Positions 34,719 through 50,828 of a stretch of 50,828 bases of DNA are shown here, in pieces. The DNA lies in contig JAUVAR010000001.1 in assembly GCA_030591625.1 (NCBI GenBank), positions 1 through 50,828 of the forward strand, given 5' to 3'. The first letter of the stretch is position 1, and every line of letters starts with the position of its first letter. Both the position numbers and the translations under genes were made by a program. The notes beneath the pieces were generated by a model, which did no database searches, was not told the origin of the DNA, and worked only from the letters and a program-made list of their open reading frames with translations. This stretch comes from Candidatus Zixiibacteriota bacterium (GTDB taxonomy: Bacteria > Zixibacteria > MSB-5A5 > GN15 > FEB-12).

Positions 34719-37700
34719 CTACTGTGGCGGTTGAGGTCCCGAGTTGTAGAGGAATCTGATCATGTAGGTCACATCACCAATATTAATATCATTGTCCTTA
34801 TCTACATCTGCTGATTCTGGAATCGCTGGCGCCTCGCCTCCACGGAAGAGATAGCCAATCAGCCAGGCCAGATCATTCATCGTGTATTTCTTGTTATTAT
34901 CAAGATCACCACGCAAGAATGATACAACCCTCAATACAGTTGAAACGGTGTCTGCTAATCCAAACGGATCAGTAGCTATAAATTCAATTGCGTACATTGA
35001 ATCAAGGTATGTATTGTCCGGGGTTACAGAATAGACACCAGAACCATTACCCGAATCTACAAATCCAGCAAACAATTGAGACCACATCGGGGTTGCTGTT
35101 AGTGTTATCAGGTCGAGGTCTGGTTCAATTGAACGAACAAGTATTTGAGAGAGTGCGTTTACTGCAATGTTAATAGTATCATTGATTGTGTTAGAGAAAT
35201 AAGGTGCCTGATTTCCTGCTTCAATCACATCGACCTGAATCGACTGTGAAATTGAAAGTCCTCTATCGTCAGTTGCAATAAACAAAATGTTATATGTTCC
35301 GGCCTGAGTAAAATCAGGAGAGAAGCGGAAAGTCCCAAACCCAGGGGTTGTGCTAAAAGTAGCATTGGCTGGACTACCTGTCATCGACAACATAGGAGCC
35401 GAGCTTCCATCAAAATCGGTAGCACCAATCTGGAAAGTAACGTTATCACCTTCAGTTACCGTGAATGGTCCTTCACCATTTATAAATACAAATTCAGGCG
35501 GGGCGTTGCGATCATTTACTGTAATCTGGACCGGAGCGGTAGCGTCCTTAACTAATCCAGGATCAGCTGCATCGGTAGCAAAGAATCTGATATAGTAGAA
35601 ACTCGACGATGTACCGCCTTGAGAGTAATCCGGGTAGAATGTAAGGACACCAATACCGTTACCCGAATCTACCATTACCATATTAGGTTCAGTCAAACTT
35701 GTTTCGCCATCTATTCTTGCTCCGATAGCAGGAATCGTTCCGTCAGGATCATCTGCAAAGACGACGTACACCAAAGTATCACCTTCAAAGACTGATGCTG
35801 GCCCCATAGTAACAATTCTTGGAGCTCTATTTGAATCAATAACGATGATTGAAACAAACTCTGTATCCATTACTGTTGGAACATCAAAATCCTCTGCAAG
35901 GATAAGAATATCATAACTGCCTTCTTGCAGGTCAGTCGGAATCCATGAGAACAATCCTGTGCCATCACGATTATCTGTTACAGTTGCACCAGTAGGGAGC
36001 AAGGCACCAGTAATTAGTGGTGGTTCTGTTCCATCGATATCCTGAGTGTAAATATTGAATGAAATACTTTTAAGCTCGATACCCTGCTGATCGGTTAAGG
36101 CCGCCAGCACAGGAAGCTGGTTACCAGCATCGGCAACATCAAGAGTTATTGTAATTGTATCAGCAAGAATACCGTCTGATGCAATCAAGTCGATCGCGTA
36201 AACGCCAGCATCAAGGAAGAACGGTTCGGCGATAAAACGACCAACACCGTCACTCTCATCGGTGAAACTTACAAATGCCGGCATACTGGCTCCAACCACA
36301 TTAAGTGTGATAGAACCTTCATCAGGGTCAGATGCAGTAACTACAAATTCAAGAGTGTCACCTTCAACCATTGTTGTAGCCGGCAGAGCACCAAAGACGG
36401 GAGCCTGATCACCTGCTTCATAGACTTGAACCAAGACTACTTCTTTAGCAGTTGAAAAACCATCACTCGCTTTGACTGTAACCGAATGCAAGCCGGACTG
36501 AACAAAGTTAGGGAAAAAAGTAAAGACACCACTGCCATCACCATTATCTACAAAAGTTGAGTTTTCAGGAAGCCCTGATCCAGAAAGCGTAGGAATAGCT
36601 CCGTCTGCATCAGTTGCTGAAACATTCAAAATCAGCAAATCACCTTCGGTAACTGTTTGCGCGCCTATTGGAGCGAGCACTGGTCGAATATTTGTAGTTA
36701 CGACACTAATTTCTATGTCAATTGTGGAAGAGAGTTGAGGCAGACCTTGATCGACTGCAAGGAACGAGACTGTATTGATTCCTGCCTGGGTAGCATCTGG
36801 TACAAAAGTATAAGTTCCTGTACCGTCACCATTATCTACAAACGATGCATTTGGTATTGCTGTCAAAACTGAGAGGAAGATAGAATTGGTAAGGTTCGGG
36901 TCGGTCGAGTCGGAAACAATGATCGTGAACGAAAGGGTATCACCCACAGCGATTCCAAACGGACCAGCAACAGTCCAAAGCGGAGCCTGGTTAACATCGG
37001 TTGTTGTAATAACAAACGATGTATTACCTGTTTGTTGCGGAGTACCAAAGTCGGTAGCGAAGAAATTAACTGTGTCGATACCAGCATCGATAAAGTCAGG
37101 TGAATAACTGAAACTCGCGGTTCCGTCACCATTATCTAAGAATGTATAATTCTGTAGAGAAGTGTTAACAGATAGAATTGGGAAGAATGCTCCACCATCA
37201 GGGTCGTTCGCCGTGATAGTAATGGCGAGAACATCTCCTTCGTTAACAGTTGTATCATTTTGAATTACAAAGATCGGAGCCTGGTTGCCTGATTCATTAA
37301 CTGTGATATCAACAAACTCAGAATCTGCAAGGGTGCCATCGGAGGCAATGAATGTTACTGTAATCAAACCGGCCTGATCAAAAGCAGGTGAGAAATCAAA
37401 CGATCCAGTTCCATCAAGATTATCTATGAATGTAGCATTGAGTGGAAGATTGACCGCACTCAGCGCAGGAATCGTTCCATCAACATCGCTGGCACTAACT
37501 GCAAATGCAAGGTTGGCACCTTCATTGGTAGTTTGAGCACCAATCGCTGCCAACACAGGAGTCTGATTACCTGCTTCGGCAATAGTGACATTCACAATAC
37601 CTGAGTCAGTTTCGATTCCATCAGTAGCGTAGAAAGAGATGTCATAAATACCGGCCTGAGTGAAATCAGGAGTCCAGCTAACCAAACCAACACCATTGAG

Positions 37701-39434
37701 CGAATCAACAAATGTTGCACCAACCGGCAGATTCAATGCAGACAGAACAGGTGCTGTACCATCACCATCAGAACCATTGATCAGGAAAGTGAGAATTACA
37801 TTTTCTGTCCCAACCTGTGCAACAGGTAATGCAAGTACCGGAGCCTGGTTAGTTTCATTAACTGTAATTTGTACAACCTGTGAGTCAACGGCTAAAGAGG
37901 CATCGAGAGCTTTAAACGTTACATTATAGACACCCGACTGAGTTAGATCAGGGTTGAATGTAAATGTTCCGCTACCATCAGTGTTGTCAACAAATGTAGC
38001 GTTGGCTGGAGCATTAACAACAGATAGAGTTGGAATTTCACCATCTGCATCGGTTGCCAGAACGGTCAGAACCAACGAACCACCTTCGACCATCGTCGTG
38101 TTATTCATTGCAGCAACTACAGGAGCCTGGTTGCCAGCTTCATTTATTGTAATGACGACTGCTTCTGAATCAACCAACAAGTTGTTTATCGCATCAGTAG
38201 CGTAGAACATAATATTGTACACGCCACCAGAAGTGAAGTCAGTCTGCCAATTGAATGTTCCGGTGCCGTCAAGATTGTCAACGTATGTTGCACCGGAAGG
38301 AAGGGCAGATGCACTCAACAAGGGGGTATCGCCATCAACGTCAGACGCCGAAGTACCAAAGGTAAGCAGATCATTTTCTAAAGCGCTTTGCGCTCCGATA
38401 GCTGCAAGAACCGGTTGAGTATTAGCATCGTAATTATATGCGCCGATCAAAGTGTTGGAGCTAAGAGCGGACGACAAATTTGAAATAACTATGTCAGCCG
38501 GGCCGATTGGACCCGGAGGAGTTGTGGCTGTAATTTGATATGGAGAAATGACTGTGGCGGAAACCGGGACGGCTGCGCCAAACTGAACAGAAACACCATT
38601 CGGATCGAAATCGTTGCCTGAAATCGAAACAGTTGTTCCACCTACGGCTGGGCCATTGGACGGACTAATGGAAGTAATAGTCGGTGCCTGTGAACCAGCA
38701 GAACTAATGGAGACTACTGTTGAATGAGATGAATAATTACCTGATGCATCTTCTGCAATCAGGACATAATCGTATAAGCTGATACCATCAACTGTGTTAT
38801 CAACAAAGAAGCTGTCAACCAAACCTGCATCCAAAAGATCGCCGGCAGGATTATCAACACGGAAAAACGATCCGGTTGAGCCTGAGTTGCGTCTGTAGAG
38901 ATGGTATGTTAAACCGGCTACACCATTCCATTCAACAAGGATAGTTGATCCGGAAAGAGCCGAACCAGCAAGACCAGTTGGAGCAGATGGCAAAGCAGCT
39001 ATAGCCAAAGCAATATTTTCCTGTTGGAATGAATTGCTCGGGATACTGCTTTCCAAATGATACGCTTCACCATTAACCAAATTGATGAAATAGTAATCGT
39101 ATGGATTACCTGGCGCTTCGGTTAAGTAATTTTGGAAATCATCAAACCAGTTACCGGCATCATATCCAGCTCCTGCCGATGTTTCGATTCGGATTTCTTC
39201 GTCGGTATCATCCAGGAAACCAACAAAGCTTATCTCACCATTCGCCGGTGTTGTCAGATCCGAATTGCTTACTGTCCCAAAGATTGAACCCTGGGCAAAA
39301 GCGGAGGACGACAACAACAGCGTCACTAACAGGGCAAGTACAGGCAACGTACTTACCGATGTTCTTTTTGTATTATACCGCACAGCGGTACCTCCATATA
39401 TGTTACAACCAACATTTCTCATATTCACTAACAC
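34719..39434 (-). CDS. Large secreted repeat protein: FN3-like, IPT/TIG, ~12 cadherin/He_PIG-like repeats and a C-terminal dockerin-like module
   Basis: Signal peptide (..LPVLALLVTLLLSSSAFAQ). IPT/TIG-like segment APTITSISPSNGPAVGGTTVSISGNDF... About 12 repeats of ~93-105 aa share the pattern P.L..IG.Q...EG..L.F...A.D.DG..P.LS...LP..A.F.DN.DG.G.F...P...Q.G.Y.V.F.A.D. A GGGAG Shine-Dalgarno overlaps the stop codon of the upstream giant ORF. The start is one of GTG 39434, GTG 39428 or ATG 39422. Confidence 0.85.
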   Translation of the reverse strand: MLVNMRNVGCNIYGGTAVRYNTKRTSVSTLPVLALLVTLLLSSSAFAQGSIFGTVSNSDLTTPANGEISFVGFLDDTDEEIRIETSAGAGYDAGNWFDDFQNYLTEAPGNPYDYYFINLVNGEAYHLESSIPSNSFQQENIALAIAALPSAPTGLAGSALSGSTILVEWNGVAGLTYHLYRRNSGSTGSFFRVDNPAGDLLDAGLVDSFFVDNTVDGISLYDYVLIAEDASGNYSSHSTVVSISSAGSQAPTITSISPSNGPAVGGTTVSISGNDFDPNGVSVQFGAAVPVSATVISPYQITATTPPGPIGPADIVISNLSSALSSNTLIGAYNYDANTQPVLAAIGAQSALENDLLTFGTSASDVDGDTPLLSASALPSGATYVDNLDGTGTFNWQTDFTSGGVYNIMFYATDAINNLLVDSEAVVITINEAGNQAPVVAAMNNTTMVEGGSLVLTVLATDADGEIPTLSVVNAPANATFVDNTDGSGTFTFNPDLTQSGVYNVTFKALDASLAVDSQVVQITVNETNQAPVLALPVAQVGTENVILTFLINGSDGDGTAPVLSALNLPVGATFVDSLNGVGLVSWTPDFTQAGIYDISFYATDGIETDSGIVNVTIAEAGNQTPVLAAIGAQTTNEGANLAFAVSASDVDGTIPALSAVNLPLNATFIDNLDGTGSFDFSPAFDQAGLITVTFIASDGTLADSEFVDITVNESGNQAPIFVIQNDTTVNEGDVLAITITANDPDGGAFFPILSVNTSLQNYTFLDNGDGTASFSYSPDFIDAGIDTVNFFATDFGTPQQTGNTSFVITTTDVNQAPLWTVAGPFGIAVGDTLSFTIIVSDSTDPNLTNSIFLSVLTAIPNASFVDNGDGTGTYTFVPDATQAGINTVSFLAVDQGLPQLSSTIDIEISVVTTNIRPVLAPIGAQTVTEGDLLILNVSATDADGAIPTLSGSGLPENSTFVDNGDGSGVFTFFPNFVQSGLHSVTVKASDGFSTAKEVVLVQVYEAGDQAPVFGALPATTMVEGDTLEFVVTASDPDEGSITLNVVGASMPAFVSFTDESDGVGRFIAEPFFLDAGVYAIDLIASDGILADTITITLDVADAGNQLPVLAALTDQQGIELKSISFNIYTQDIDGTEPPLITGALLPTGATVTDNRDGTGLFSWIPTDLQEGSYDILILAEDFDVPTVMDTEFVSIIVIDSNRAPRIVTMGPASVFEGDTLVYVVFADDPDGTIPAIGARIDGETSLTEPNMVMVDSGNGIGVLTFYPDYSQGGTSSSFYYIRFFATDAADPGLVKDATAPVQITVNDRNAPPEFVFINGEGPFTVTEGDNVTFQIGATDFDGSSAPMLSMTGSPANATFSTTPGFGTFRFSPDFTQAGTYNILFIATDDRGLSISQSIQVDVIEAGNQAPYFSNTINDTINIAVNALSQILVRSIEPDLDLITLTATPMWSQLFAGFVDSGNGSGVYSVTPDNTYLDSMYAIEFIATDPFGLADTVSTVLRVVSFLRGDLDNNKKYTMNDLAWLIGYLFRGGEAPAIPESADVDKDNDINIGDVTYMIRFLYNSGPQPPQ
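34722..34916 (-). other. Dockerin-like duplicated Ca-binding (F-hand) module at the C-terminus of the 1,571-aa protein
   Basis: Two segments, GDLDNNKKYTMNDLAWLIGYLF and ADVDKDNDINIGDVTYMIRFLY. Both fit the dockerin pattern D.(D/N).(D/N)..(I/V)...D...(L/M)..(Y/F)(L/I). Confidence 0.65.
34917..38423 (-). repeat. Array of ~12 diverged coding repeats (~280-315 bp each) in the 1,571-aa gene
   Basis: Repeat boundaries are visible in translation as recurring ..(I/V)TVNE(A/S/T)GNQ(A/T)P(V/I).. junctions. Confidence 0.8.
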
Positions 39435-39441
39435 TCACTCC

Positions 39442-42400
39442 CTAAGGGGCAGGAAACGTTCCTGCAGCAGCAACATTAGCCTGATAAGGCTTGCCTGCAC
39501 GGACTGTGAAGTTAGTGCCAAATCCAGCCGCAAAACGCGAGATGTAGCTCTGCGAGCCGGATATGAATTGATTTAGTGTATTCAAATTGCCCGGGATTGA
39601 GTTTATCAAATCCTGTGCAACTGTAAAGTCATTTTCAAATTCAAACGGAACCATGATAAAGTTGAAATCAGTAGTTGCCGTTGTTACCATCGAGTAGCTA
39701 ACTGTTCCCGAGTCCGGAATATTACCGGCAGTCGAGAAGACTGCATTAGTTGCTGCATTAACTTGATATACAGTGCCAACATTCACCGAGAAGTTAACAC
39801 CAAATCCTGCTGCAAAGCGCGATTCGAATGACTGCGAAGCTGCGATGAAATTGTTCACCGTCAAAACGTTTGATCCACCAATTGCATTGATGAGTCCAAT
39901 GGCATCGGTTATTCCGCTATTTGTAAACGGAATGCCTACCAGATTGAAGTTTGTCGTTGCAGTCGCGACCAATTGGTAATCATATTCGCCGACTCGATTT
40001 GAGATCGCCGACCGATTACCGTAAATATCTACTACATCGACAGTATAGAAGTACTGATTAACTGTATCGCCGACAACATCCGCTCCACCAATATTATTAT
40101 CGGTGAAGATCGATGTAATGCCGTCCGAATATCCGACAGAATCTATAGAGCTCGGCGTAAAGTAAGCACTGGTACCACGATAGATCGTGTAATGATCTAC
40201 TGTGATAGCAAAGCCTGAGGTGTCCGAAGAAACTGTGCTCCAGGCGAGATCAATTACATCGGCAACTATTTGGATTGTCAAATCAGTAACTGCCAATGGT
40301 GGAGCACCGTTGACGACATTTATAAGAACTGTATCAGGGGCCGAGAATAGGGAGCCATCATCTACAGTAAGTTCAAATTCATAGTTACCCGGAATACCAG
40401 GAACAAAATCAGGAGTCTGAGAAAGCGTGTCAGAAAGTGTCACTGCTACTCCGGAGACCTGCTGCCAATGATATCCAAGAAGGTCGCCGTCAGGATCGGA
40501 AGATCCGAAACCATCCAAGAAGACCGGGCTGTTGGTTGGAACTGTATTCTGATCAAAACCTGCATCGGCAAGCGGTGAACGATTAACATCGTTAACAGTA
40601 ATTACAACAACCTCTGAATCGGCAAGAGCACCGTCATCGGCAATGAAGGTAACATTGTATATACCTGCATCGGTGTACGATGGTGTCCAGTCAAATGATC
40701 CGGTGCCGTCAAAGTTATCTATGAACGTTGCGCCGACAGGAAGATCAACAACCAGTAGAGTAGGGATCGTAGCATCGATATCTGTTGCAGAGATTGTAAA
40801 GTAAAGGTTCAATGTTTCGTTCGTAACCTGCGAGCCAATTGCTGCAAGAATCGGTATCTGGTTGCCCGCTTCATTAACTGTAATCGTTACTATTTCTGTA
40901 TCCGATAATCCACCGTCATCCGCGATAAACGTTACGTTGTAGATACCACCATCGGTGAACAACGGAGTCCAATCAAATGATCCGGTACCGTCTAAGTTAT
41001 CTGTGAACGTCGCGCCAGTTGGCATATTAAGGGCTGACAATGCAGGGATTGTTGCATCAACATCTGTAGCAGAAATTGTGAAGTTAAGATTTATATTTTC
41101 AGCTGTAGCCTGAGCACCAATTGAAGCAAGAACAGGAATTTGGTTGCCTGCTTCATTAACAGTTATTACAACAACTTCAGAATCAGCAAGGGCGCCGTCA
41201 TCGGCAATAAATGTAACGTTGTAAATGCCTGCTTCAATAAACGTCGGTGTCCAGTTGAACGATCCAGTGCCATCACCATTGTCAGTAAACGTTGCACCAG
41301 TTGGTACGTTAAGCGCAATCATCGTAGGAATAGTAGCGTCAATGTCTGTTGCTGAGATAGCAAAGTTAAGATTTATATTTTCAGTCGTTGACTGCGCACC
41401 AATTGAAGCGAGAACAGGAATCTGGTTACCTGCTTCATTGACTGTGATCACAACAAGTTCAGTATCGGCAAGTGCGCCATCATCGGCGATGAATGTAAGA
41501 TTGTAAACACCTGCTTGAATATACGTTGGTGTCCAGTCGAACGATCCAGTTCCGTTTAAGTTATCAGTAAATGTTGCTCCAGTCGGAAGACCAGTAGCAG
41601 AGAGTGCAGGTATTGTTGCATCAACGTCTGTTGCTGAGATAGCAAAGTTCAGATTTATATTTTCAGTCGTTGACTGTGCACCTATTGTAGCAAGAACTGG
41701 AATTTGGTTGCCTGCTTCAATTACTGTGATCACAACAAGTTCAGTATCAGCAAGTCCGCCATCATCGGCGATGAACGTTACATTATAAACACCAACTTCG
41801 ATAAACGAAGGGGTCCAGTCGAATGATCCGGTGCCGTCTGAATTATCTATAAATGTTGCTCCTGCCGGAACGTTAAGAGCCGACAATGCAGGGATTGTTG
41901 CATCAACATCTGATGCTGAGATAGCAAAGTTTAGATTGACGTTTTCAGTCGTTGACTGCGCACCAATTGTCGCAAGGACAGGAGCCTGGTTACCAGCTTC
42001 ATTAACTGTAATTACAACAAGTTCGCTGTCGGCAAGTGCGCCATCATCGGCGATGAACGTTACGTTGTAGATACCACCATCAGTAAACAAAGGTGTCCAG
42101 TCGAATGTTCCGGTACCGTCTAAGTTATCGGTGAACGTAGCACCTGTTGGTACGTTAAGCGCAATCATCGTAGGAATAGTAGCGTCAATATCTGTTGCTG
42201 AGATAGCAAAACTGAGATTAACATTTTCAGTAGTTGACTGAGCACCAATTGAAGCGAGAACAGGAATCTGGTTACCGGCTTCATTGACTGTGATTACAAC
42301 AATTTCTGAATCGGCAAGGACGCCATCATCGGCGATGAATGTAACGTTGAACACACCTGCTTGAATATACGTTGGTGTCCAGTCGAACGATCCGGAGCCG

Positions 42401-45400
42401 TCACCATTATCGGTGAACGTTGCACCTGTTGGGATGTTTAGAGCTGACAATGCCGGAATCGTTGCATCAACATCTGATGCTGAGATTCCGAAGTTAAGAT
42501 TTATATTTTCAGTCGTTGCCTGTGCACCTATTGTTGCAAGAACTGGAATTTGGTTACCTGCTTCAATTACTGTGATCGCTACTATTTCAGTATCAGCAAG
42601 TCCGCCATCATCGGCGATGAACGTTACATTATAAACACCAACTTCGATAAACGAAGGGGTCCAGTCAAACGATCCGGTGCCGTCTGAATTATCTATAAAC
42701 GTTGCTCCTGCCGGAATGTTCAGAGCCGACAATACCGGAATCGTTGCATCAACATCTGTTGCCGATATCGCAAAGTTAAGATTTATATTTTCTGTCGTTG
42801 CCTGTGCACCAATTGTTGCAAGCAGAGGAGTCTGGTTGCCTGCTTCATTGACAGTAACAACAACCTGCTCCGAATCAACGGCCGACGAATCATCGGTTGC
42901 ATAAAACGTAATATTGTAAATACCAGCCTGTACATAGCTTGGATTAAAATCAAATGTTGCAGTGCCATCACTATTGTCAACGAACGAAGCATTGGTCGGC
43001 AGAGTCGAAGTTGACATCGTAATCAGGCCAACTTCTGCGTCAGTTGCAGAAACTGCGAAGTTCAAGTTAGCACCTTCAGTCACAGCCTGGGCACCAATGC
43101 CTGCGAGCAACGGGTTCTGGTTGCCGGCATCAACGATTGTAATTGTAACTATTTCAGAATCAACAAAGATCCCGTCAGAAGCTCGGAAGGTGACATTATA
43201 AATACCCGACTGCAAGTAACCAGGAGTCCAATTAAATGATCCGGTGCCATCGCCGTTCGCCGTGAAAGTTGCACCTGAAGGAAGCGCTGTCCAACTAAGT
43301 ACAGGAACTGTGCTGTCAGGATCAGTTGCACTCACTACAAAATTGAGTGTTGTTGCTTCACCAGTTGATTGAGCACCAATCGCCGCAAGGATCGGAGACT
43401 GGTTACCCGCTTCACCAACAACTATCGAGATAGCTTCTGAATCAAATGCACCACTATCATCGGTGGCAAAGAATGTAACACTATAAAGTCCGCTCTGAGT
43501 AAAGTCCGGTGTCCAATCAAAGGTCGCAGTGCCGTCACCATTATCTGTTAGCGTTGCGCCTGTTGGAAGACCGGTCGCAGTCATAATCGAGAATGTCTGA
43601 TCGAGATCGCTTGAGCTGGCGACAAAGTTTAGATTGGTGTTTTCCGAAATATTTTTAGCACCTATCGCTGCAAGTACAGGTGTCTGGTTACCGATATCAA
43701 TAACTGTGATTGTAACAATTTCACTGTCAGAAAGAACTCCATCGTCGGCGATGAACGTTACATTATATATACCTGCATCAACATAACCCGGCGTGTAATC
43801 AAAGGTAGCGGTGCCATCACCATTGTCTGTTAATGTTGCACCTGTTGGAATGTTAAGAGCAGACAGAGCAGGAATTGTTGCATCAACATCTGATGCTGAT
43901 ATTACAAAGTTAAGATTGACAGTTTCAGTCGTTGACTGTGCACCTATTGATGCAAGCAGAGGAATTTGGTTGCCGGCTTCGTTAACAGTTATGACAACAA
44001 GTTCACTATCTGCAAGACCGCCATCATCAGCGATAAACGTAACATTATAAATGCCTGCTTCAATGAAGGTCGGAGTCCAGCTGAATGATCCGGTGCCGTC
44101 TCCATTGTCGGTAAACGTTGCGCCTGTTGGAAGATTTAAAGTTGATAGCGCAGGGATTGTTGCATCATCATCCGAGGCCGAAATTGCAAAACTTAGATTT
44201 ATATTTTCAGTTGTTGTCTGTGCACCAATCGATGCAAGCAGAGGAATCTGGTTGCCTGCTTCGTTAACAGTTATTACAACGAGCTCACTATCGGCAAGTG
44301 CTCCGTCGTCGGCAATAAACGTAACGTTGTATATACCTGCTTCAATAAACGTCGGTGTCCAACTGAATGATCCAGTACCGTCTAAATTATCTGTGAACGT
44401 TGCGCCAACTGGAAGTCCTACAACCAATAGAGCAGGAATCGTTGCGTCAACGTCTGAGGCCGAGATGGAAAAGTTAAGATTCAGATTTTCAGTTGTTGCT
44501 TGTGCACCAATTGAAGCGAGAACAGGAATCTGACTGCCTGCTTCATTAACAGTTATTACAACAAGTTCGCTATCGGCAAGACCGCCATCATCAGCGATGA
44601 ATGTAACATTATAAACACCAGCTTCAACGAACGAAGGGGTCCAACTAAATAATCCAGTTCCGTCTCCATTGTCAGTAAACGTTGCGCCAGTCGGAAGTCC
44701 TACTGTTGACAGCCCTGGAATCGTTGCATCTATATCTGTTGCTGAGATAGAAAAACTGAGATTTATATTTTCTGTAGTTGTCTGTGCACCAATCGCTGCC
44801 AGAACAGGAATCTGGTTACCTGCTTCGTTAACCGTTACCACAACGATTTCACTATCAGCAAGAAGACCGTCATCAGCTATAAATGTAACGTTATAAATAC
44901 CTGCTTCAACGAACGACGGTGTCCAACTGAATGATCCGGTGCCGTCACCATTGTCAGTAAACGTTGCGCCAGTCGGAAGATTAACAGACGAAAGGACTGG
45001 AATCGTTGCATCAAGATCAGAAGCTGAGATAACAAAGTTAAGATTTATATTTTCCGTTGTTGACTGCGCTCCGATAGCTGCAAGAACAGGATTCTGATTT
45101 CCTGATTCGTTCACCGTTAGTGTGACTTCTTCAGAATCAACCGCCAAAGAATCATCGGTTGCATAGAACGTAATATTGTAAACACCATTTTGAGTAAAGT
45201 CAGGACTGATATCGAAAATTCCGGTACCGTTACCATTGTCAATAAACGATGCGTTGGCCGGCAATGACGATGTTGTCAAAACAACCTGACCACCCTCGGC
45301 ATCAACAGCAGATATCCCAATATTCAGATTGCTGCCTTCGTTCACAAGCTGAGCGCCTATTGTTGCAAGGACTGGATTTTGGTTGCCTGCATCATTGACA

Positions 45401-48400
45401 GTAACTGTCACAATTTCTGATACAAAAGCGGTCGAATCGTCAGTCGCCGTGAATGTAATATTGTAAATACCCGACTGAGTAAAGTCAGGTGAGAAATCAA
45501 ATGTTCCGGTACCATCACCATTGTCAACAAATGTTGCGCCAGCCGGAAGTGCTGAAGTTGTCAGTACAATTAAACCACCTTCAATATCAGAAGATGAAAC
45601 AGCAAAGTTAAGATTTGCACCTTCGGTAACAACCTGCGCACCAATTGATGCAAGCACAGGGCTCTGGTTGCCAATTTCATTAACTGTTATTGTGACAACT
45701 TCATTGTCCGAAAGAGTACCGTCATCGGCAGTGAACGTTACATTATATATACCGGCATCAACAAAACCAGGCGTGTAATCAAAGGTAGCGGTGCCATCAC
45801 CATTGTCTGTAAATGTTGCACCTGACGGAAGACCTGTCGCCGAGAAAGCAGGAGTTGTGCCATCAACATCTGAGGCTGTTATTGTAAAGTTTAGATTTAC
45901 TGTTTCAGTTGTTGACTGTGCGCCAATCGCTGCAAGCACAGGCGCTTGGTTACCGGCTTCGTTAACAGTTATTACTACAAGTTCACTATCGGAAAGCAGG
46001 CCGTCATCTGCGATGAATGTAACGTTGTAAATGCCATCTTCAACGAACGAAGGAGTCCAGCTGAATGATCCTGTTCCGTCTAAGTTATCTGTGAACGATG
46101 CGCCTGTTGGAAGATTAACAGTCGAAAGAACTGGAATCGTTGCATCAACATCTGAGGCTGAGATCGGAAAACTAAGATTTATATTTTCTGTCGTTGACTG
46201 TGCACCAATCGCTGCAAGCACAGGTGTTTGGTTGCCAGCTTCATTAACTGTTATTACTACGAGCTCACTATCGGCAAGACCGCCATCATCAGCGATAAAC
46301 GTTACATTATAAACGCCAGCTTCAACGAACGTCGGTGTCCAGCTGAATGAGCCTGTGCCATCTAAGTTATCGGTGAACGTTGCACCAACCGGAAGTCCTA
46401 CCGTTGAAAGGGCAGGGATTGTTGCATCTATATCAGTTGCTGAGATTGCAAAGTTTAGATTGATGTTTTCAGTTGTTGCTTGTGCACCAATCGTTGCAAG
46501 GACTGGAATCTGGTTGCCTGCTTCATTAACTGTTATAACAACAACTTCACTATCTGCAAGCAGGCCATCGTCGGCAATGAATGTAACGTTATAAACGCCT
46601 GCTTCAATAAACGACGGAGTCCAGCTGAATAATCCGGTGCCGTCTCCATTGTCAGTAAACGTTGCTCCAGTCGGAAGATTAACAGTCGAAAGAACTGGAA
46701 TCGTTGCATCTATATCTGTTGCAAAAATACCAAAGCTAAGATTTATATTTTCAGTTGTTGACTGTGCGCCAATCGCTGCAAGCACAGGCGCTTGGTTACC
46801 GGCTTCGTTAACAGTTATTACTACAAGTTCACTATCTGCAAGCAGGCCGTCATCTGCTATAAATGTAACGTTGTAAACACCTGCTTCAACGAATGACGGA
46901 GTCCAGCTGAATGAACCTGTTCCATCTAAGTTGTCTGTGAACGATGCGCCAACAGGGAGTCCCACCGTTAAAAGAATTGGAATCGTTGCATCAACATCTG
47001 AGGCTGAGATGGAAAAACTTAGATTTATATTTTCAGTTGTTGACTGCGCACCGATAGCTGTAAGAACAGGAATCTGGTTTCCTGCTTCATTAACAGTTAT
47101 GACAACAAGTTCACTATCGGCAAGTCCGCCATCATCAGCAATGAATGTAACATTATAAACACCAGCTTCAATGAACGAAGGGGTCCAACTAAATAATCCT
47201 GTGCCGTCTCCATTGTCAGTAAACGACGCTCCAGATGGCATATTAAGGGCTGACAATATTGGTGTCGTTGCATCTATATCTGAGGCCGAAATTGCAAAGT
47301 TAAGATTAACATTTTCAGTTGTTGACTGTGCACCGATAGTTGCGAGTACAGGTGCCTGGTTGCCTGCTTCGTTAACTGTTATCACAACAACTTCACTATC
47401 TGCAAGCGCTCCGTCACCTGCTATAAACGTAACGATGTAAACACCAGACTGAATAAACGACGGGGTCCAATTGAATGATCCGGTTCCGTCTAAGTTATCT
47501 GTGAACGATGCACCACTCGGGAGGTCAACAATTGAAAGGGTTGGAGTCGTTGCATCTACGTCAGCAGCGGTAATCACGAAATTTAGATTAACATTTTCAG
47601 TAGTTGCCTGCGCACCTATTGATGTAAGCAAAGGTGCCTGGTTGCCTGCTTCATTAACTGTTATAACAACGAGTTCACTATCTGCAAGTGCTCCATCATC
47701 AGCAATAAACGTAACGTTGTAAACACCTGCTTCAATGAATGTCGGTGTCCAGCTGAATGAACCTGTTCCGTCTAAGTTATCGGTGAACGTTGCACCAGTT
47801 GGCAGATTAGCTGTTAATAGAGATGCTATTGTACCATCGACATCACTCGACGTAATCACAAAGCTGAGATTTATATTTTCAGTAGTTGACTGCGCACCGA
47901 TAGTTGCAAGGACAGGTGCCTGGTTGCCTGCTTCATTAACAGTAATTGCAACAAGCTCTGAGTCAGCAAGAGCACCATCACCTGTTATGAATGTAACATT
48001 ATAAGTACCAACATCGGTGAATGACGGCGTCCAATTAAAAGATCCGGTGCCATCAAAATTATCGACGAACGTGGCGCCCGAAGGAAGAGCAAGTGCGGAC
48101 AAGGTAGGAATAGTAGAATCCGGGTCTGATCCGTTAACCGTGAAAGACAACAAAGTACCCTCAGATACAAATTGCGGTCCAACCGGTGTCAGTACAGGTG
48201 CCTGATTTCCAGCTTCACTTACAGTTAGGAAAACAAGTTCAGAGTCAATTGCCACGCCGTCAGAAATATAGAACGATAAGCTGTAGATATCTGCCTGAAT
48301 GAAATTCGGATTAAAATCTAATGTACCGGTGCCATCGCCATTATCTAAGAATGTTGCATTAGCCGGAAGGGTTGAAGTAGTAAGAGTAAGAGCTGTTGAG

Positions 48401-50828
48401 TCGGCATCTGTTCCACTTATAACCAAATTAAGATTGTCACCCTCGGTTACGAACTGATTGCCAACCGCCGCAAGAATCGGCAACTGGTTGACATTGTTGA
48501 CAGTTATTGTTACAAGTTCGGAAGCGATAAGATCACCATCGGTGACAAAGAATGTTATGTCAAAGCTGCCAAACTGATAATAGGTCGGACTAAACGAAAG
48601 ATCACCGGTGCCATCACCATTGTCAATAAATGTAGCATTTGATGGAAGAGCACTGGTCGTCAATGTTAGTGTTTCGAGATCCGGATCTGTGCTATTTACT
48701 GTAAACCCTAAGATGCTATTTTCATCAACCAGCTGCGAACCGATACTGCTTAGAATCGGTGAACGATTGATATTGGTAACCGTTATCGTAACAATTTCAG
48801 AATGAACTGCAGCTGTGTCATCGGTCGCACTAAATGTAATGTTATAAATTCCAGACTGGAAATAATCCGGATTGAAATTAAATGTACCGGTTCCATCAAG
48901 ATTATCGATGAACGAAGCACCCGACGGAAGAGCCGATGTTGTCAGGGTTGGTATAGTGCTATCAGCGTCAGTAGCTGAAATAGTGAAATTCAAATTACTG
49001 TTTTCATCAACCAACTGACTTCCAATAGCTGCTAATACAGGCGTCTGATTGCCGGCATCATTGACAGTTACTGTCACAACTTCTGAAGAGAACGCTGAAC
49101 TATCGTCAGTTGCCGTAAATGTAATATCATAAGAACCGGACTGAATGTAGTTTGGATTGAAATCAAATGTACCGGTGCCATCACCGTTATCTATAAAGGT
49201 TGCATTCGCCGGAAGAGCTGAAGTTGTCAGAACAATTGGTCCAAACTCAGCATCAGTAGCCGAGACAACAACGTTAAGATTGTTTCCTTCAATTACATTC
49301 TGAGAACCGATTGATGCAATCAGAGGTAATTGGTTGCCGGCGTCATTGACGGTGATAAACACAACCTCAGTATCTGACGTAATACCATCATGAGCACGGA
49401 AAACAACCGAACTTATTCCCGACTGCAGGAAGTCAGGGTTGAAATCGAAAGTCGCGGTGCCATCACCATTGTCAACAAATGTCGCATTGGCGGGGAGAGC
49501 TGAACTTGTAAAAGTCGGGATCGTGGCATCATCGTCAGAGGCAGTAAGCAAGATATTAAGATTGCCACCTTCTGTAATAGTCTGTGGGCCAACTGCTGTA
49601 AGAACAGGTGCCTGGTTACCAGCTTCATTGACTGTTATACTGATTTGTTCAAAGTCAGTAAGTGAACCATCAGATGCAGTGAAAGTAATATCATAAATTC
49701 CAGCCTGTGTAAAATCAGGATTGAACGAGAAGTTTCCTGTGCCGTTACCATTGTCAACAAATGAAGCACCCGTTGGAAGCAACGAATTTGTCAATGCAGG
49801 GAAAGTGCCATCGGGGTCTGTTGATGAAATTCCAAAAGCTAATAGAATACCCTCTGTGACTGAACGATTTCCAATCGTTGCCAATACTGGAGATTGGTTA
49901 CCTGCTTCACCAACAGAAATCGCTACTATTTCTGAATCTACTGCAAGTGAGTCATCGGTTGCATAGAAAATAACCTGATAAACACCGGCTTGAGTGAAAT
50001 CCGGATTCCAATCAAATGTAGCAGTTGCATCACCATTATCTGTGAAGTTTGCACCGGATGGCAGAGTTGAAGTTGAAAGTACAATACTTCCTAATTCAGG
50101 GTCTGTTGCTGACATACCAAAGTTTATATTGATCCCTTCGGTAACAGCTTTTGGACCGATCGACGAAAGAATCGGATTCTGATTTCCAGGATCAGTAACA
50201 GTTATTGTCACTGTCTCAGAATCAACTGTTGCTGAATCATCAGTTGCATAAAATGTTACATTATATATACCTGATTGAAGGTAGTCAGGATTGAAACCAA
50301 ACGTTCCGGTGCCATTCAAATTATCCGTGAACGTTGCATTAGCCGGTAAACCTGATGTTGTCAGAACAGGAATTGTTCCGTCGGCATCCGAAGCTGTGAT
50401 TCCAAAATTAAGACTCGCACCTTCGTTAATTGACTGAGCGCCAATCACTGCAAGGACAGGATCGAGATTGACCTGATTGACAGTTATTGTCACTGTCTCA
50501 GAATCAACCGCTAAACTATCATCAGTCGAATAGAATGTTACGTCGTAACTACCAGCCTGCGTGAAGTCAGGGGTGAAGTCAAAAGTTCCAGTTCCATCAA
50601 GATTATCTATGAACGTTGCATTAGTCGGCAGAGCCGAAGTTGTCAGAACAGGAATCGTTCCGTCGGCATCACTCGCTGAAATACCAAAGTTTAGATTTGC
50701 GCCTTCGTTAATATTCTGTGCACCGATTGCTGCAAGAACTGGATCCAAATTGATCTGGTTGACAGTTATTGTCACTATCTCTGAATCAGCTGCGGCTGAA
50801 TCATCAGTCGAATAGAATGTAACATCGT
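39442..50828 (-). CDS. Giant surface repeat protein, 5'-truncated by the window edge (more than 3,794 codons): 36 cadherin/He_PIG-like repeats, PKD-like, FN3-like, and a duplicated novel C-terminal module
   Basis: The frame is open from base 50826 to the TAG at 39442-39444. The tracked 'M' at 50775 is an internal GTG: the preceding codons read DVTFYSTDDSAAADSEI and continue the repeat. See the repeat features and findings for details. Confidence 0.9.
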   Translation of the reverse strand, partial: DVTFYSTDDSAAADSEIVTITVNQINLDPVLAAIGAQNINEGANLNFGISASDADGTIPVLTTSALPTNATFIDNLDGTGTFDFTPDFTQAGSYDVTFYSTDDSLAVDSETVTITVNQVNLDPVLAVIGAQSINEGASLNFGITASDADGTIPVLTTSGLPANATFTDNLNGTGTFGFNPDYLQSGIYNVTFYATDDSATVDSETVTITVTDPGNQNPILSSIGPKAVTEGININFGMSATDPELGSIVLSTSTLPSGANFTDNGDATATFDWNPDFTQAGVYQVIFYATDDSLAVDSEIVAISVGEAGNQSPVLATIGNRSVTEGILLAFGISSTDPDGTFPALTNSLLPTGASFVDNGNGTGNFSFNPDFTQAGIYDITFTASDGSLTDFEQISITVNEAGNQAPVLTAVGPQTITEGGNLNILLTASDDDATIPTFTSSALPANATFVDNGDGTATFDFNPDFLQSGISSVVFRAHDGITSDTEVVFITVNDAGNQLPLIASIGSQNVIEGNNLNVVVSATDAEFGPIVLTTSALPANATFIDNGDGTGTFDFNPNYIQSGSYDITFTATDDSSAFSSEVVTVTVNDAGNQTPVLAAIGSQLVDENSNLNFTISATDADSTIPTLTTSALPSGASFIDNLDGTGTFNFNPDYFQSGIYNITFSATDDTAAVHSEIVTITVTNINRSPILSSIGSQLVDENSILGFTVNSTDPDLETLTLTTSALPSNATFIDNGDGTGDLSFSPTYYQFGSFDITFFVTDGDLIASELVTITVNNVNQLPILAAVGNQFVTEGDNLNLVISGTDADSTALTLTTSTLPANATFLDNGDGTGTLDFNPNFIQADIYSLSFYISDGVAIDSELVFLTVSEAGNQAPVLTPVGPQFVSEGTLLSFTVNGSDPDSTIPTLSALALPSGATFVDNFDGTGSFNWTPSFTDVGTYNVTFITGDGALADSELVAITVNEAGNQAPVLATIGAQSTTENINLSFVITSSDVDGTIASLLTANLPTGATFTDNLDGTGSFSWTPTFIEAGVYNVTFIADDGALADSELVVITVNEAGNQAPLLTSIGAQATTENVNLNFVITAADVDATTPTLSIVDLPSGASFTDNLDGTGSFNWTPSFIQSGVYIVTFIAGDGALADSEVVVITVNEAGNQAPVLATIGAQSTTENVNLNFAISASDIDATTPILSALNMPSGASFTDNGDGTGLFSWTPSFIEAGVYNVTFIADDGGLADSELVVITVNEAGNQIPVLTAIGAQSTTENINLSFSISASDVDATIPILLTVGLPVGASFTDNLDGTGSFSWTPSFVEAGVYNVTFIADDGLLADSELVVITVNEAGNQAPVLAAIGAQSTTENINLSFGIFATDIDATIPVLSTVNLPTGATFTDNGDGTGLFSWTPSFIEAGVYNVTFIADDGLLADSEVVVITVNEAGNQIPVLATIGAQATTENINLNFAISATDIDATIPALSTVGLPVGATFTDNLDGTGSFSWTPTFVEAGVYNVTFIADDGGLADSELVVITVNEAGNQTPVLAAIGAQSTTENINLSFPISASDVDATIPVLSTVNLPTGASFTDNLDGTGSFSWTPSFVEDGIYNVTFIADDGLLSDSELVVITVNEAGNQAPVLAAIGAQSTTETVNLNFTITASDVDGTTPAFSATGLPSGATFTDNGDGTATFDYTPGFVDAGIYNVTFTADDGTLSDNEVVTITVNEIGNQSPVLASIGAQVVTEGANLNFAVSSSDIEGGLIVLTTSALPAGATFVDNGDGTGTFDFSPDFTQSGIYNITFTATDDSTAFVSEIVTVTVNDAGNQNPVLATIGAQLVNEGSNLNIGISAVDAEGGQVVLTTSSLPANASFIDNGNGTGIFDISPDFTQNGVYNITFYATDDSLAVDSEEVTLTVNESGNQNPVLAAIGAQSTTENINLNFVISASDLDATIPVLSSVNLPTGATFTDNGDGTGSFSWTPSFVEAGIYNVTFIADDGLLADSEIVVVTVNEAGNQIPVLAAIGAQTTTENINLSFSISATDIDATIPGLSTVGLPTGATFTDNGDGTGLFSWTPSFVEAGVYNVTFIADDGGLADSELVVITVNEAGSQIPVLASIGAQATTENLNLNFSISASDVDATIPALLVVGLPVGATFTDNLDGTGSFSWTPTFIEAGIYNVTFIADDGALADSELVVITVNEAGNQIPLLASIGAQTTTENINLSFAISASDDDATIPALSTLNLPTGATFTDNGDGTGSFSWTPTFIEAGIYNVTFIADDGGLADSELVVITVNEAGNQIPLLASIGAQSTTETVNLNFVISASDVDATIPALSALNIPTGATLTDNGDGTATFDYTPGYVDAGIYNVTFIADDGVLSDSEIVTITVIDIGNQTPVLAAIGAKNISENTNLNFVASSSDLDQTFSIMTATGLPTGATLTDNGDGTATFDWTPDFTQSGLYSVTFFATDDSGAFDSEAISIVVGEAGNQSPILAAIGAQSTGEATTLNFVVSATDPDSTVPVLSWTALPSGATFTANGDGTGSFNWTPGYLQSGIYNVTFRASDGIFVDSEIVTITIVDAGNQNPLLAGIGAQAVTEGANLNFAVSATDAEVGLITMSTSTLPTNASFVDNSDGTATFDFNPSYVQAGIYNITFYATDDSSAVDSEQVVVTVNEAGNQTPLLATIGAQATTENINLNFAISATDVDATIPVLSALNIPAGATFIDNSDGTGSFDWTPSFIEVGVYNVTFIADDGGLADTEIVAITVIEAGNQIPVLATIGAQATTENINLNFGISASDVDATIPALSALNIPTGATFTDNGDGSGSFDWTPTYIQAGVFNVTFIADDGVLADSEIVVITVNEAGNQIPVLASIGAQSTTENVNLSFAISATDIDATIPTMIALNVPTGATFTDNLDGTGTFDWTPLFTDGGIYNVTFIADDGALADSELVVITVNEAGNQAPVLATIGAQSTTENVNLNFAISASDVDATIPALSALNVPAGATFIDNSDGTGSFDWTPSFIEVGVYNVTFIADDGGLADTELVVITVIEAGNQIPVLATIGAQSTTENINLNFAISATDVDATIPALSATGLPTGATFTDNLNGTGSFDWTPTYIQAGVYNLTFIADDGALADTELVVITVNEAGNQIPVLASIGAQSTTENINLNFAISATDIDATIPTMIALNVPTGATFTDNGDGTGSFNWTPTFIEAGIYNVTFIADDGALADSEVVVITVNEAGNQIPVLASIGAQATAENINLNFTISATDVDATIPALSALNMPTGATFTDNLDGTGSFDWTPLFTDGGIYNVTFIADDGGLSDTEIVTITVNEAGNQIPILAAIGSQVTNETLNLYFTISATDIDATIPTLLVVDLPVGATFIDNFDGTGSFDWTPSYTDAGIYNVTFIADDGALADSEVVVITVNDVNRSPLADAGFDQNTVPTNSPVFLDGFGSSDPDGDLLGYHWQQVSGVAVTLSDTLSQTPDFVPGIPGNYEFELTVDDGSLFSAPDTVLINVVNGAPPLAVTDLTIQIVADVIDLAWSTVSSDTSGFAITVDHYTIYRGTSAYFTPSSIDSVGYSDGITSIFTDNNIGGADVVGDTVNQYFYTVDVVDIYGNRSAISNRVGEYDYQLVATATTNFNLVGIPFTNSGITDAIGLINAIGGSNVLTVNNFIAASQSFESRFAAGFGVNFSVNVGTVYQVNAATNAVFSTAGNIPDSGTVSYSMVTTATTDFNFIMVPFEFENDFTVAQDLINSIPGNLNTLNQFISGSQSYISRFAAGFGTNFTVRAGKPYQANVAAAGTFPAP
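39445..39984 (-). repeat. Tandem duplication of an ~85-90-aa C-terminal module of unknown family
   Basis: YQLVATATTNFNLVGIPF..LINAIGG..LTVNNFIAASQSFESRFAAGFGVNFSVNVGTVYQVNA.. aligns with YSMVTTATTDFNFIMVPF..LINSIPG..NTLNQFISGSQSYISRFAAGFGTNFTVRAGKPYQANV... Confidence 0.75.
40576..50828 (-). repeat. Array of 36 tandem coding repeats plus one partial, period ~282 bp (94 aa)
   Basis: Consensus ..NQ.PVLA.IGAQ.TTENINLNF.ISA.DVDATIPALS..NLPTGATFTDN.DGTGSF.WTP.F.EAG.YNVTFIADDG.LADSE.VVITVNEAG. Counted unit by unit in the translation. The array ends at ..VNDVNRS|PLADAG (40575/40576). Confidence 0.9.

Follow-up and report, generated by a model that had tools for sequence, protein, structure and literature searches.

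A minus-strand frame at one end of the window, by which the whole 50,828-bp stretch of DNA that was analysed is meant, makes up the last 11.4 kb, on the 3′ side, of a giant gene that is genuine and comes from a Zixibacteria-type bacterium. The visible protein has at least 3,794 aa (at least 390 kDa), and its gene is central to a conserved cluster of surface-fibre genes. The preferred reading, to which a probability of roughly 0.6 is assigned, is that the product is a giant fibre exported by the Sec pathway and attached non-covalently by a C-terminal foot, within a surface cluster built around a cohesin-dockerin pair and type IX secretion (T9SS). What is new is the conserved foot, the fixed partner gene with a dockerin tail and the upstream cohesin protein with a T9SS sorting domain; the repeats themselves were already known. 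Zixibacteria are an uncultured phylum that is widespread in sediments and groundwater and whose cell surface is essentially unknown, and the giant gene and its partner were conserved at every related locus examined. Searches of the literature for Zixibacteria in combination with giant proteins, dockerin, cohesin or T9SS returned nothing relevant, and a preprint on giant genes does not cover this family.

Extent of the giant gene

Translation of positions 39442-50826 gave an uninterrupted frame of 3,794 sense codons and one terminal stop, which runs from the stop codon at 39442 over 11.4 kb and is still open at the window edge, as the original prediction had described. The ORF listing gives 39442..50775 only, because counting there begins at the first GTG. 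As the window is the entire NCBI contig, the edge of the frame is an assembly break and the 5′ end of the gene is missing; the contig ends inside the repeat array, which places the N-terminus outside the window, also as predicted. The sequence at the edge had no exact DNA match in the metagenome contigs scanned, so that the 5′ end was not recovered, and the giant's own sequence was absent from the protein collection searched. Promoter and terminator scans gave signal at background level only. Homologous frames are open across the full 10 kb available in approximately 25 independent assemblies, complete chromosomes among them, and one complete giant homologue has 3,408 aa; almost every homologue in the database is a fragment at the end of a contig. 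Given 3,794 open codons and the open homologous frames in these assemblies, the frame is a genuine gene and not a chance one. Please refer to Table 1 for the coordinates of all features.

Table 1. Features of the giant gene and its neighbours in the window
Feature	Position	Strand	Basis and remarks
C-terminal 24 aa of the 37th repeat unit, cut by the contig end	50755..50828	-	translation
36 tandem He_PIG / Big_9 / cadherin-like Ig units, aa 25-3414, 93-95 aa each	40585..50754	-	motif spacing, Pfam, NCBIfam
PKD domain (K319L-like_PKD / PKD_4), aa 3415-3504	40315..40584	-	Pfam
FN3-like domain, aa ~3507-3611	39994..40308	-	predicted structure; no Pfam match
Module copy 1, undescribed, beta-rich, aa ~3612-3706	39709..39993	-	copy comparison, AF2
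Module copy 2, aa ~3707-3794, conserved ...GTFPAP C-terminus	39445..39708	-	stop codon at 39442-39444
Partner gene, 1,567 aa from ATG	34719..39422	-	conserved neighbour; start 7-19 nt past the stop of the giant
Type I dockerin, C-terminus of the partner	34749..34910	-	Pfam Dockerin_1, 29.7 bits against a cut-off of 22.9
286-aa cargo protein with T9SS type A sorting domain	33391..34251	-	Pfam/NCBIfam; neighbour, context only

The repeat array

The loop motif [DA]N.[DN][GA][TS][GA] occurs 36 times at a spacing of 93-95 aa, in agreement with the predicted 36 tandem cadherin/He_PIG-like repeats, and delimits 36 full units, to which the 24-aa tail of a further unit is added at the edge. At the DNA level, Tandem Repeats Finder reported a period of 282 bp at 40835-48051 (25.6 copies, 71% matches) and again at 50198-50828; the stretch between 48051 and 50198 is too divergent for the program and keeps its period at the protein level. 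The array had been called a near-perfect 282-bp one, which holds for the strict period and not for the sequence: the units share on average 66% DNA identity (maximum 90%) and 62% protein identity (range 39-90%), and the longest exact word common to repeat units is 81 nt. The exact repeat count could still be off.

In profile searches, which the original prediction had suggested for He_PIG among others, the repeat unit matched both PF05345 and NF012211. On the giant, Pfam He_PIG gave an E-value of 7.6e-149 and 485 bits (cut-off 24) over 26 stretches and the NCBIfam tandem-95 repeat model (NF012211) 203 bits against a cut-off of 90; the scores of He_PIG, Big_9 and the tandem-95 repeat all exceed the curated cut-offs, and Cadherin_5 and Cadherin_4 matched the repeats as well. 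As judged from these profiles, the repeats are He_PIG (PF05345) / tandem-95 repeat domains, a known kind. Pfam matches of the giant to DHDPS, Golvesin_C, DUF3707 and Ribophorin were rejected as artefacts, being weak matches summed over 36 repeats, and a search for a close solved homologue of the repeat unit found none. Giant surface proteins of the tandem-95 / He_PIG type share the period of ~95 aa, the acidity and the extracellular location, whereas their family models describe the repeat only, and the PKD-FN3-double-module end and fixed gene neighbourhood of the giant occur in no described family.

The composition is extremely acidic, with 446 acidic against 14 basic residues and a pI of 4.05; each unit has approximately 12 invariant D/E/N positions, and a cadherin-like NEAGNQxP linker is present. 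From the invariant positions, the linker and the pI, stiffening of the fibre by Ca2+ is plausible.

The C-terminal foot

Behind the array the protein ends in a PKD domain, an FN3-like domain and two copies of a beta-rich module. The PKD and FN3-like units had been recognised in the original prediction; the former was matched by Pfam K319L-like_PKD (E 9.2e-15) and the latter, in a Foldseek search with its predicted structure, by FN3 domains (e.g. 1k85, TM 0.79). The two modules are 51% identical (E 3e-23) and were predicted with high confidence by AF2, both together with the FN3-like domain (pLDDT 96.2, pTM 0.91) and as a pair alone (pLDDT 94.3). The FN3-plus-double-module end is 52-75% identical across 48 protein clusters and 73 Zixibacteria-type genome loci; it is strictly C-terminal, with an invariant ...F-P-x-P terminus, and its modules carry invariant polar loops (SQS.ESRFAAGFG.NF).

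Neither the window copy of the double module nor distant family members had a match in Pfam or NCBIfam, and comparison of its sequence profile with the PDB returned no credible match. Foldseek against the PDB gave nothing below an E-value of 0.001, the best match being the lumenal domain of GGCX (E 0.039, TM 0.22). The double module was also considered as a cohesin, which was rejected as it had no match to cohesin structures. In a viral structure library the single match (E 1.7e-4, TMq 0.55) was to a "putative hemin binding protein" of a marine phage and is uninformative as to module function.

The module had been described as a duplicated orphan. The duplication is real, but the module is no orphan: its family comprises 674 protein cluster representatives, extracellular proteins of diverse kinds that have it at their C-terminal end or close to it. 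The domain is widespread and undescribed, and the analysis exposes a confidently folding family of 674 clusters with no entry in Pfam, NCBIfam or the PDB. Chloroflexota encode cohesin-FN3-module-module proteins, in which the modules occupy the place expected of an anchoring module, and KSB1-like and other proteins carry a normal type A sorting domain after the foot cassette. Small proteins consisting of a signal peptide and the double module alone also exist; they are a poor fit to the double module as a pure anchor.

The conserved gene neighbourhood

The original prediction had left the anchoring route of the giant blank, a view that no longer holds as the cluster to which the gene belongs is conserved and includes the dockerin-tailed partner as well as a cohesin protein bearing a T9SS sorting domain. 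The He_PIG partner (1,560-2,570 aa) lies directly downstream of the giant in 73/73 Zixibacteria-type loci, where its N-terminal region, with a mean identity of 57%, adjoins the giant in every case. In the window it has a signal peptide, followed by this conserved N-terminal region, which contains a TIG domain, by He_PIG/tandem-95 repeats and by a dockerin at the C-terminus. A type I dockerin forms the end of 46 of the 47 complete partners, Dockerin_1 matched 43 of 45 orthologous partner tails, and the partner tail matched dockerins of the PDB at 8e-13 to 1e-9.

At each of the five loci in which the 5′ side of the giant is visible (L016, L026, L062, L061 and L080), a cohesin protein with a T9SS type A sorting domain is encoded one or two genes upstream (5/5). 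No cohesin gene was detectable in the window, its expected position being beyond the contig end. The 286-aa neighbour, which has an uncharacterised N-terminal domain, gave one local BLASTP match to a Zixibacteria cohesin (E 4e-6) and was considered as the missing cohesin; neither Pfam nor a profile search of the PDB nor profile-profile comparison bore this out, and the candidate was not accepted. The tie of the giant to the cohesin-dockerin pair is one of gene neighbourhood only, and neither Cohesin nor Dockerin matched its 3,794 aa.

The cluster resembles cellulosome-type assemblies in the type I dockerin of the partner and, at related loci, in the cohesin protein with its T9SS type A sorting domain. 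For Cloacimonadota, a cohesin scaffold held on the cell surface by a T9SS sorting domain has already been suggested, and the scaffoldin put forward for 'Ca. Stygibacter' embodies the same idea (PMC8542988). Cellulosomal dockerins are carried by enzymes, whereas here a non-catalytic He_PIG fibre bears the dockerin, neither domain of the pair is present in the giant, and no carbohydrate-active enzymes are fixed in the Zixibacteria cluster. The cluster may represent a non-cellulosomal use of cohesin-dockerin pairing with T9SS anchoring, for long fibres and not for enzyme complexes.

Proposed export and attachment of the giant

Six complete homologues (L016, L026, L030, L059, L062 and P0050/L080) start with Sec-type signal peptides, as judged by eye, and by homology to these relatives we infer that the giant is exported through Sec. 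In L016 and L026 the repeats follow directly after a cleavable-looking signal peptide with no N-terminal retention or anchor domain, whereas others carry extra N-terminal domains that vary between lineages; a distal ligand-binding head, which had been predicted to lie outside the window, is accordingly optional.

No anchor motif, transmembrane helix or sorting domain was found in the giant. Its last 398 aa gave no Pfam or NCBIfam match to a T9SS sorting domain of type A (TIGR04183) or type B (TIGR04131), in keeping with the predicted absence of such a domain; a sortase LPXTG or PEP-CTERM motif with a transmembrane helix and a basic tail was not found, and the highest 19-residue hydropathy, 1.69, falls within a beta-strand. 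A protein of this size (>390 kDa) would have to cross the outer membrane, and neither an autotransporter barrel nor a T1SS signal or T9SS sorting domain was recognised in it.

From these features we infer the following route of export and anchoring. The protein forms a fibre that is long and extremely acidic, with at least 36 He_PIG / cadherin-like Ig domains to which Ca2+ probably gives stiffness; this supports the earlier reading of a very long secreted or surface fibre. It ends in the compact, phylum-conserved foot of PKD, FN3 and two undescribed beta-rich modules. T9SS would export the cohesin protein and fix it on the outer membrane, and the dockerin of the partner fibre would plug into this anchored cohesin. 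The giant, having no anchor of its own, would be tied by its foot, in a non-covalent manner, to the assembly or to the cell surface, and its variable N-terminal end would face outward as the contact end. Should the foot turn out to serve for docking or anchoring, the display of giant proteins without any known anchor by diderm bacteria would be explained.

An elaboration that is put forward tentatively, and is considered rather unlikely, is a modular and so far undescribed surface appendage of two segments, in which the T9SS-anchored cohesin protein would hold the dockerin fibre and the foot of the giant, with its new fold, would cap the conserved N-terminal head of that fibre end to end. Such an appendage would exceed 5,300 residues, reach ~200 nm or more at ~4.5 nm per Ig domain and be put together non-covalently outside the cell, and the double module would represent a new type of domain for protein-protein docking, in wide use among Zixibacteria, KSB1, Chloroflexota and others.

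The extremely acidic composition, the lack of any anchor motif, transmembrane helix or sorting domain and the occurrence of the module alone in small secreted proteins would also suit a released fibre of a matrix or biofilm, an unattached scaffold crosslinked by Ca2+ in which the foot is a lectin or self-association domain. This is considered unlikely, as the invariable pairing with a dockerin-tailed fibre (73/73) and the upstream cohesin/T9SS protein point to a cell-attached assembly, and as conservation is strong in the C-terminal foot but the N-termini differ.

The polarity of the fibre could also be reversed, with the foot as the far tip that binds a ligand and the N-terminus, which lies beyond the contig, as the point of attachment. 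RTX adhesins carry their ligand-binding modules at the C-terminal end, and the invariant polar loops of the modules could form a binding site. Two homologues, L016 and L026, have only a signal peptide before the repeats, and the N-terminal domains of the others vary by lineage, as expected for an end that touches variable targets; reversal is thus regarded as rather improbable.

Still less probable is that the FN3-double-module end is a lineage-specific T9SS sorting domain and the giant a non-canonical T9SS cargo. The host, a member of the Fibrobacterota-Chlorobiota-Bacteroidota (FCB) group, encodes T9SS cargo proteins, the giant is encoded among their genes, and its end is strictly C-terminal and conserved down to the invariant F-P-x-P. 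The giant differs from canonical cargo (TIGR04183), however, in having no sorting domain by HMM or by profile-profile comparison, in which the double module, tried as a divergent sorting domain, gave a probability of 0.3% against the type A alignment. KSB1-like and other proteins have a normal type A sorting domain behind the cassette, which is therefore not the signal there; the cassette also terminates proteins of Chloroflexota, a phylum that is not known to be among the lineages with described T9SS.

Membership of the class of RTX adhesins exported by T1SS (LapA, SiiE, MpIBP), with which the array had originally been compared, is already contradicted and very improbable. The comparison holds for the long stalk of acidic Ig-like domains, probably Ca2+-binding and with one end far from the cell, and the giant has a weak sequence match to a domain of MpIBP (E 1e-3). 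It does not extend to the class, because homologues have Sec signal peptides and RTX nonapeptide repeats (GGxGxDxUx) occur nowhere in the visible protein; nor was a C-terminal T1SS signal seen. T1SS genes were absent from the window ORFs scanned, from the flanking genes scanned at related loci and from the called genes of L080, and no ABC transporter, membrane fusion protein or TolC was present in the window ORFs or in the flanking genes scanned at related loci.

That the giant ORF is merely apparent, through collapse, expansion or chimerism in the assembly, is hardly credible even though the contig breaks off inside the array and homologues are mostly fragments at contig ends, given the divergence of the units, the 11.4 kb free of stops and the same architecture in many independent assemblies, including complete chromosomes and the complete 3,408-aa homologue. 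The giant and its partner are among the largest genes of these genomes, and short-read assemblies routinely break there.

Giant fibre and its repeat array

The repeat array of the giant (the minus-strand gene whose 5' end lies beyond the contig edge) is by itself an unexceptional case of a known type, for which the expected NCBI name is "tandem-95 repeat protein". What is new is the conserved foot at its C-terminus, an FN3 domain followed by a double module whose fold has no solved relative, and a phylum-wide cluster of giant fibre, dockerin-tailed fibre and cohesin protein with T9SS sorting domain; no literature on such a foot or cluster in Zixibacteria was found. If the foot is a new docking or anchoring module, the finding would gain interest.

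Translation of the minus strand from position 50826 to the stop codon at 39442-39444 gave 3,794 sense codons uninterrupted by stops, so that the frame is unbroken up to the edge and the predicted ORF of more than 3,794 codons does run off the window; an ORF listing gives 39442..50775 because it starts at the first GTG. Loop motifs of the DN(G/L)DGTG type, variants included, recur 36 times at a spacing of 93-95 residues, which sets the 36 full units originally predicted (residues 25-3414), and the final 24 residues of a 37th unit are present at the edge. Tandem Repeats Finder reported a 282-bp period at 40835-48051 (25.6 copies, 71% matches) that recurs at 50198-50828. The array, described in the original prediction as near-perfect, is so in period but not in sequence: mean identity between units is 62% for protein (range 39-90%) and 66% for DNA (maximum 90%), and the longest exact word common to units is 81 nt. 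Units 29-31 recur as units 32-34, giving a super-repeat of three units (846 nt), and within units 29-34 the pair with 90% DNA identity marks the most recent duplication. As the window is the complete 50,828-bp NCBI contig, its edge inside the array is an assembly break, and no continuation past it was found by searches that included exact DNA scans of metagenome contigs.

Pfam He_PIG matched the repeats in 26 stretches with an E-value of 7.6e-149, together with Big_9, Cadherin_5 and Cadherin_4, bearing out the He_PIG-like character claimed for them, and the NCBIfam "tandem-95 repeat" domain scored 203 bits (cut-off 90), making the repeat type one already known. The PKD-like unit expected after the array was recovered as K319L-like_PKD (9.2e-15). 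Pfam matches to DHDPS (E 6.5e-48), Golvesin_C, DUF3707 and Ribophorin_II were rejected as real domains, since weak scores add up across 36 repeats. No solved close homologue of the repeats was found.

The visible part has a mass of 390 kDa and a pI near 4.05, with 321 Asp and 125 Glu against 3 Lys and 11 Arg; Cys is absent. The near absence of Lys is striking; it might confer resistance to trypsin-like proteases or keep the protein from being cross-linked. About 12 D/E/N positions are invariant in each unit, and NEAGNQxP forms a cadherin-like inter-domain linker; by analogy with the extender domains of cadherins and RTX adhesins, such a composition would fit Ca2+-dependent stiffening. An Ig-like domain of the cadherin type measures roughly 4.5 nm, at which value the 36 domains would span about 160 nm.

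Conserved foot

The last 288 residues matched nothing in Pfam or NCBIfam. AlphaFold2, supplied with an alignment of 49 homologues, predicted one compact three-domain unit (pLDDT 96.2, pTM 0.91). Its first domain was assigned by Foldseek to many FN3 domains with a probability of 1.0 (TM 0.79 to that of chitinase A1, 1k85), in agreement with the FN3-like unit predicted, and the duplication of the following module was verified, the two copies being 51% identical (E 3e-23). Each copy is predicted to contain six strands and one helix, and the pair modelled alone reached a pLDDT of 94.3. Against the PDB, the pair gave no sequence-profile match and no structural match below an E-value of 0.001 (best 0.039, TM 0.22). 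In a viral structure library the only significant neighbour of the double-module model was A0A8D9C8P8 from an uncultured marine phage (E 1.7e-4, TMq 0.55), labelled "putative hemin binding protein".

The same 288 residues matched 48 protein clusters at 52-75% identity, for which all given source names are Zixibacteria; most matches are short fragments, NCBI flags several as partial, and the giant gene routinely breaks assemblies. Among GTDB species representatives the foot was found at 73 loci (52-74% identity), including the complete chromosomes OY760907.1, OY969724.1 and CP070766.1, and at about 30% identity at six more in Zixibacteria, KSB1 and Chloroflexota/Anaerolineae. Many cassette-bearing species representatives are titled "uncultured Ignavibacteria/Ignavibacteriales" (third-party-annotated, automatically named 'binchicken' assemblies); the author-named ones are Zixibacteria, and the Ignavibacteria labels are probably inexact. 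At about 25 loci the frame was unbroken across all 10 kb available upstream (at least 3,600 aa), and giant size is therefore conserved rather than artefactual. Among complete homologues the shortest has about 1,900 aa (L016) and the longest about 3,600 aa (L030), P0050 having 3,408 aa, and all start with Sec signal peptides of typical form as judged by eye, followed directly by repeats at L016 and L026 and by additional N-terminal domains at L059 and L062. By homology, the part missing from the window would include a signal peptide and may add further repeats and, perhaps, a head domain.

Double module in other proteins

Searched against 1.84 billion representatives, the module-pair profile retrieved 674 proteins at E-values up to 1e-3 and 270 at up to 1e-10, and the region was never named in family members by Pfam or NCBIfam; the module, originally called an orphan, is thus a widespread domain without a name. 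It occurs in two contexts. In the first, about 200 residues and then a canonical type A T9SS sorting domain come after FN3-module-module (KSB1-type L076, P0064, P0074); in the second, found in Chloroflexota and others, the module pair is the protein end, usually ...W-P. N-terminal payloads include cohesin (L077, L079), right-handed beta-helix (L074), Agd3-type deacetylase (L075), beta-propeller with CarboxypepD_reg, LRR with Ig domains, and FG-GAP/RGL11; P0049 (Peptidase_C25) aligned to the FN3-like part only and then breaks off. Given the varied payloads and two contexts, many extracellular proteins therefore carry the cassette at their C-terminal end or close to it. The second context also takes in small proteins (about 230 aa) whose only parts are the double module and a signal peptide or hydrophobic N-terminal segment (P0152, P0157, P0161, P0162, P0183, P0186, P0189, P0197), so the module's role needs no payload. 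The Chloroflexota/Anaerolineae proteins L077:46-1533 and L079:2743-4161 consist of signal peptide, cohesin, FN3, module and module, an architecture that connects the module with cohesin-dockerin systems also in a second phylum; the cassette there occupies the same place as the anchoring module in anchoring scaffoldins.

Partner and cohesin genes

The partner, on the same strand, starts 7-19 nt past the giant's stop and encodes 1,567 aa arranged as signal peptide, conserved N-terminal region with TIG, He_PIG/tandem-95 repeats and C-terminal dockerin. Its non-repeat N-terminal 340 residues were found just downstream of the giant at 73/73 Zixibacteria-type loci (mean identity 57%) and at 0/6 distant loci; no other window gene showed synteny with the giant across loci. 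The dockerin is genuine: Dockerin_1 matched the window partner's tail alone with 29.7 bits (cut-off 22.9) and 43/45 partner tails overall, and a profile of the tails matched solved dockerins at 8e-13 to 1e-9. It forms the C-terminal end in 46 of 47 complete partners; the remaining one (L051:5994-12885, titled Gemmatimonadota) ends in a T9SS type A sorting domain without dockerin, which suggests that the two are interchangeable attachments of the same fibre.

Upstream of the giant, a cohesin protein with T9SS type A sorting domain, often with He_PIG and dockerin too, was present in 5/5 loci with a visible 5' side, immediately adjacent at L026, L062, L061 and L080 and second at L016, where another sorting-domain gene lies in between. 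In the window the expected position falls past the contig end.

Proposed mechanism and alternatives

The giant is a real ORF with a defined domain make-up and a conserved foot, giant and partner are strictly paired, and related clusters hold a cohesin protein with T9SS sorting domain. The mechanism draws on established Sec, T9SS and cohesin-dockerin knowledge and on a proposal for Cloacimonadota, in which a cohesin scaffold is attached to the cell surface via a T9SS sorting domain (PMC8542988). The cohesin protein would be exported and surface-attached by T9SS, the dockerin of the partner fibre would dock into it, and the giant, having neither anchor nor sorting signal, would join via its foot, whose target may be the N-terminal head of the partner, conserved to the same degree (the two fibres then extending end to end), or a conserved envelope component. 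The giant's variable N-terminus would face outward; outer-membrane crossing of a protein of more than 390 kDa is the weakest link of the proposal.

No transmembrane helix was found in the visible giant and no LPXTG or PEP-CTERM-like end; that it is a released matrix fibre is unlikely, though the most credible alternative, and attachment with reversed polarity is rather less probable. The predicted lack of a T9SS C-terminal domain held, the foot being rejected as a type A sorting domain (probability 0.3%), and we consider it improbable that the giant's end is a non-canonical T9SS sorting signal. A T1SS RTX adhesin is contradicted by the signal peptides of homologues, the absence of RTX repeats (no nonapeptides in the visible giant) and of T1SS genes nearby, and an assembly artefact by unit divergence and independent complete assemblies, leaving both highly implausible.

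Other genes

The 286-aa cargo protein downstream of the partner has only about six homologue clusters and an uncharacterised N-terminal domain. Local BLASTP aligned it to half of one Zixibacteria cohesin (E 4e-6, motif IDSxFxPPGG); as a cohesin it was not detectable, with Pfam, PDB profile search and hhalign negative. A conserved ORF without Pfam match, about 1,170 aa long, lies 0.5-0.9 kb downstream of the partner in 14 loci (L016:16461-19982 and 13 others) and is not present at the corresponding position in the window. Positions 1-34000 resemble ordinary chromosome.

Features of the window with their positions
Feature	Position	Strand	Remark
Giant	39442-50828	minus	5' end beyond contig edge
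Giant, residues counted for composition	39445-50826	minus	3,794 residues
Rejected Pfam matches on giant	39442-50826	minus	
Super-repeat, units 29-34	about 41431-43122	minus	
PKD	40315..40584	minus	
Double module	39445..39993	minus	two copies
Partner	34719..39422	minus	
T9SS type A cargo protein, 286 aa	33391-34251	minus	downstream of partner
Second T9SS cargo protein	24677-27001		
OmpA protein	17658-19175		thrombospondin type 3 repeats
Small multihaem cytochrome	16511-17026		
Other genes	within 1-34000		LpoB, Ser/Thr kinase with TPR repeats, FHA-GAF-SpoIIE phosphatase, two radical-SAM proteins, SpoIID, AnmK, GGDEF cyclase, bactofilin-domain protein, gamma-glutamyltransferase, GH35-like glycosidase
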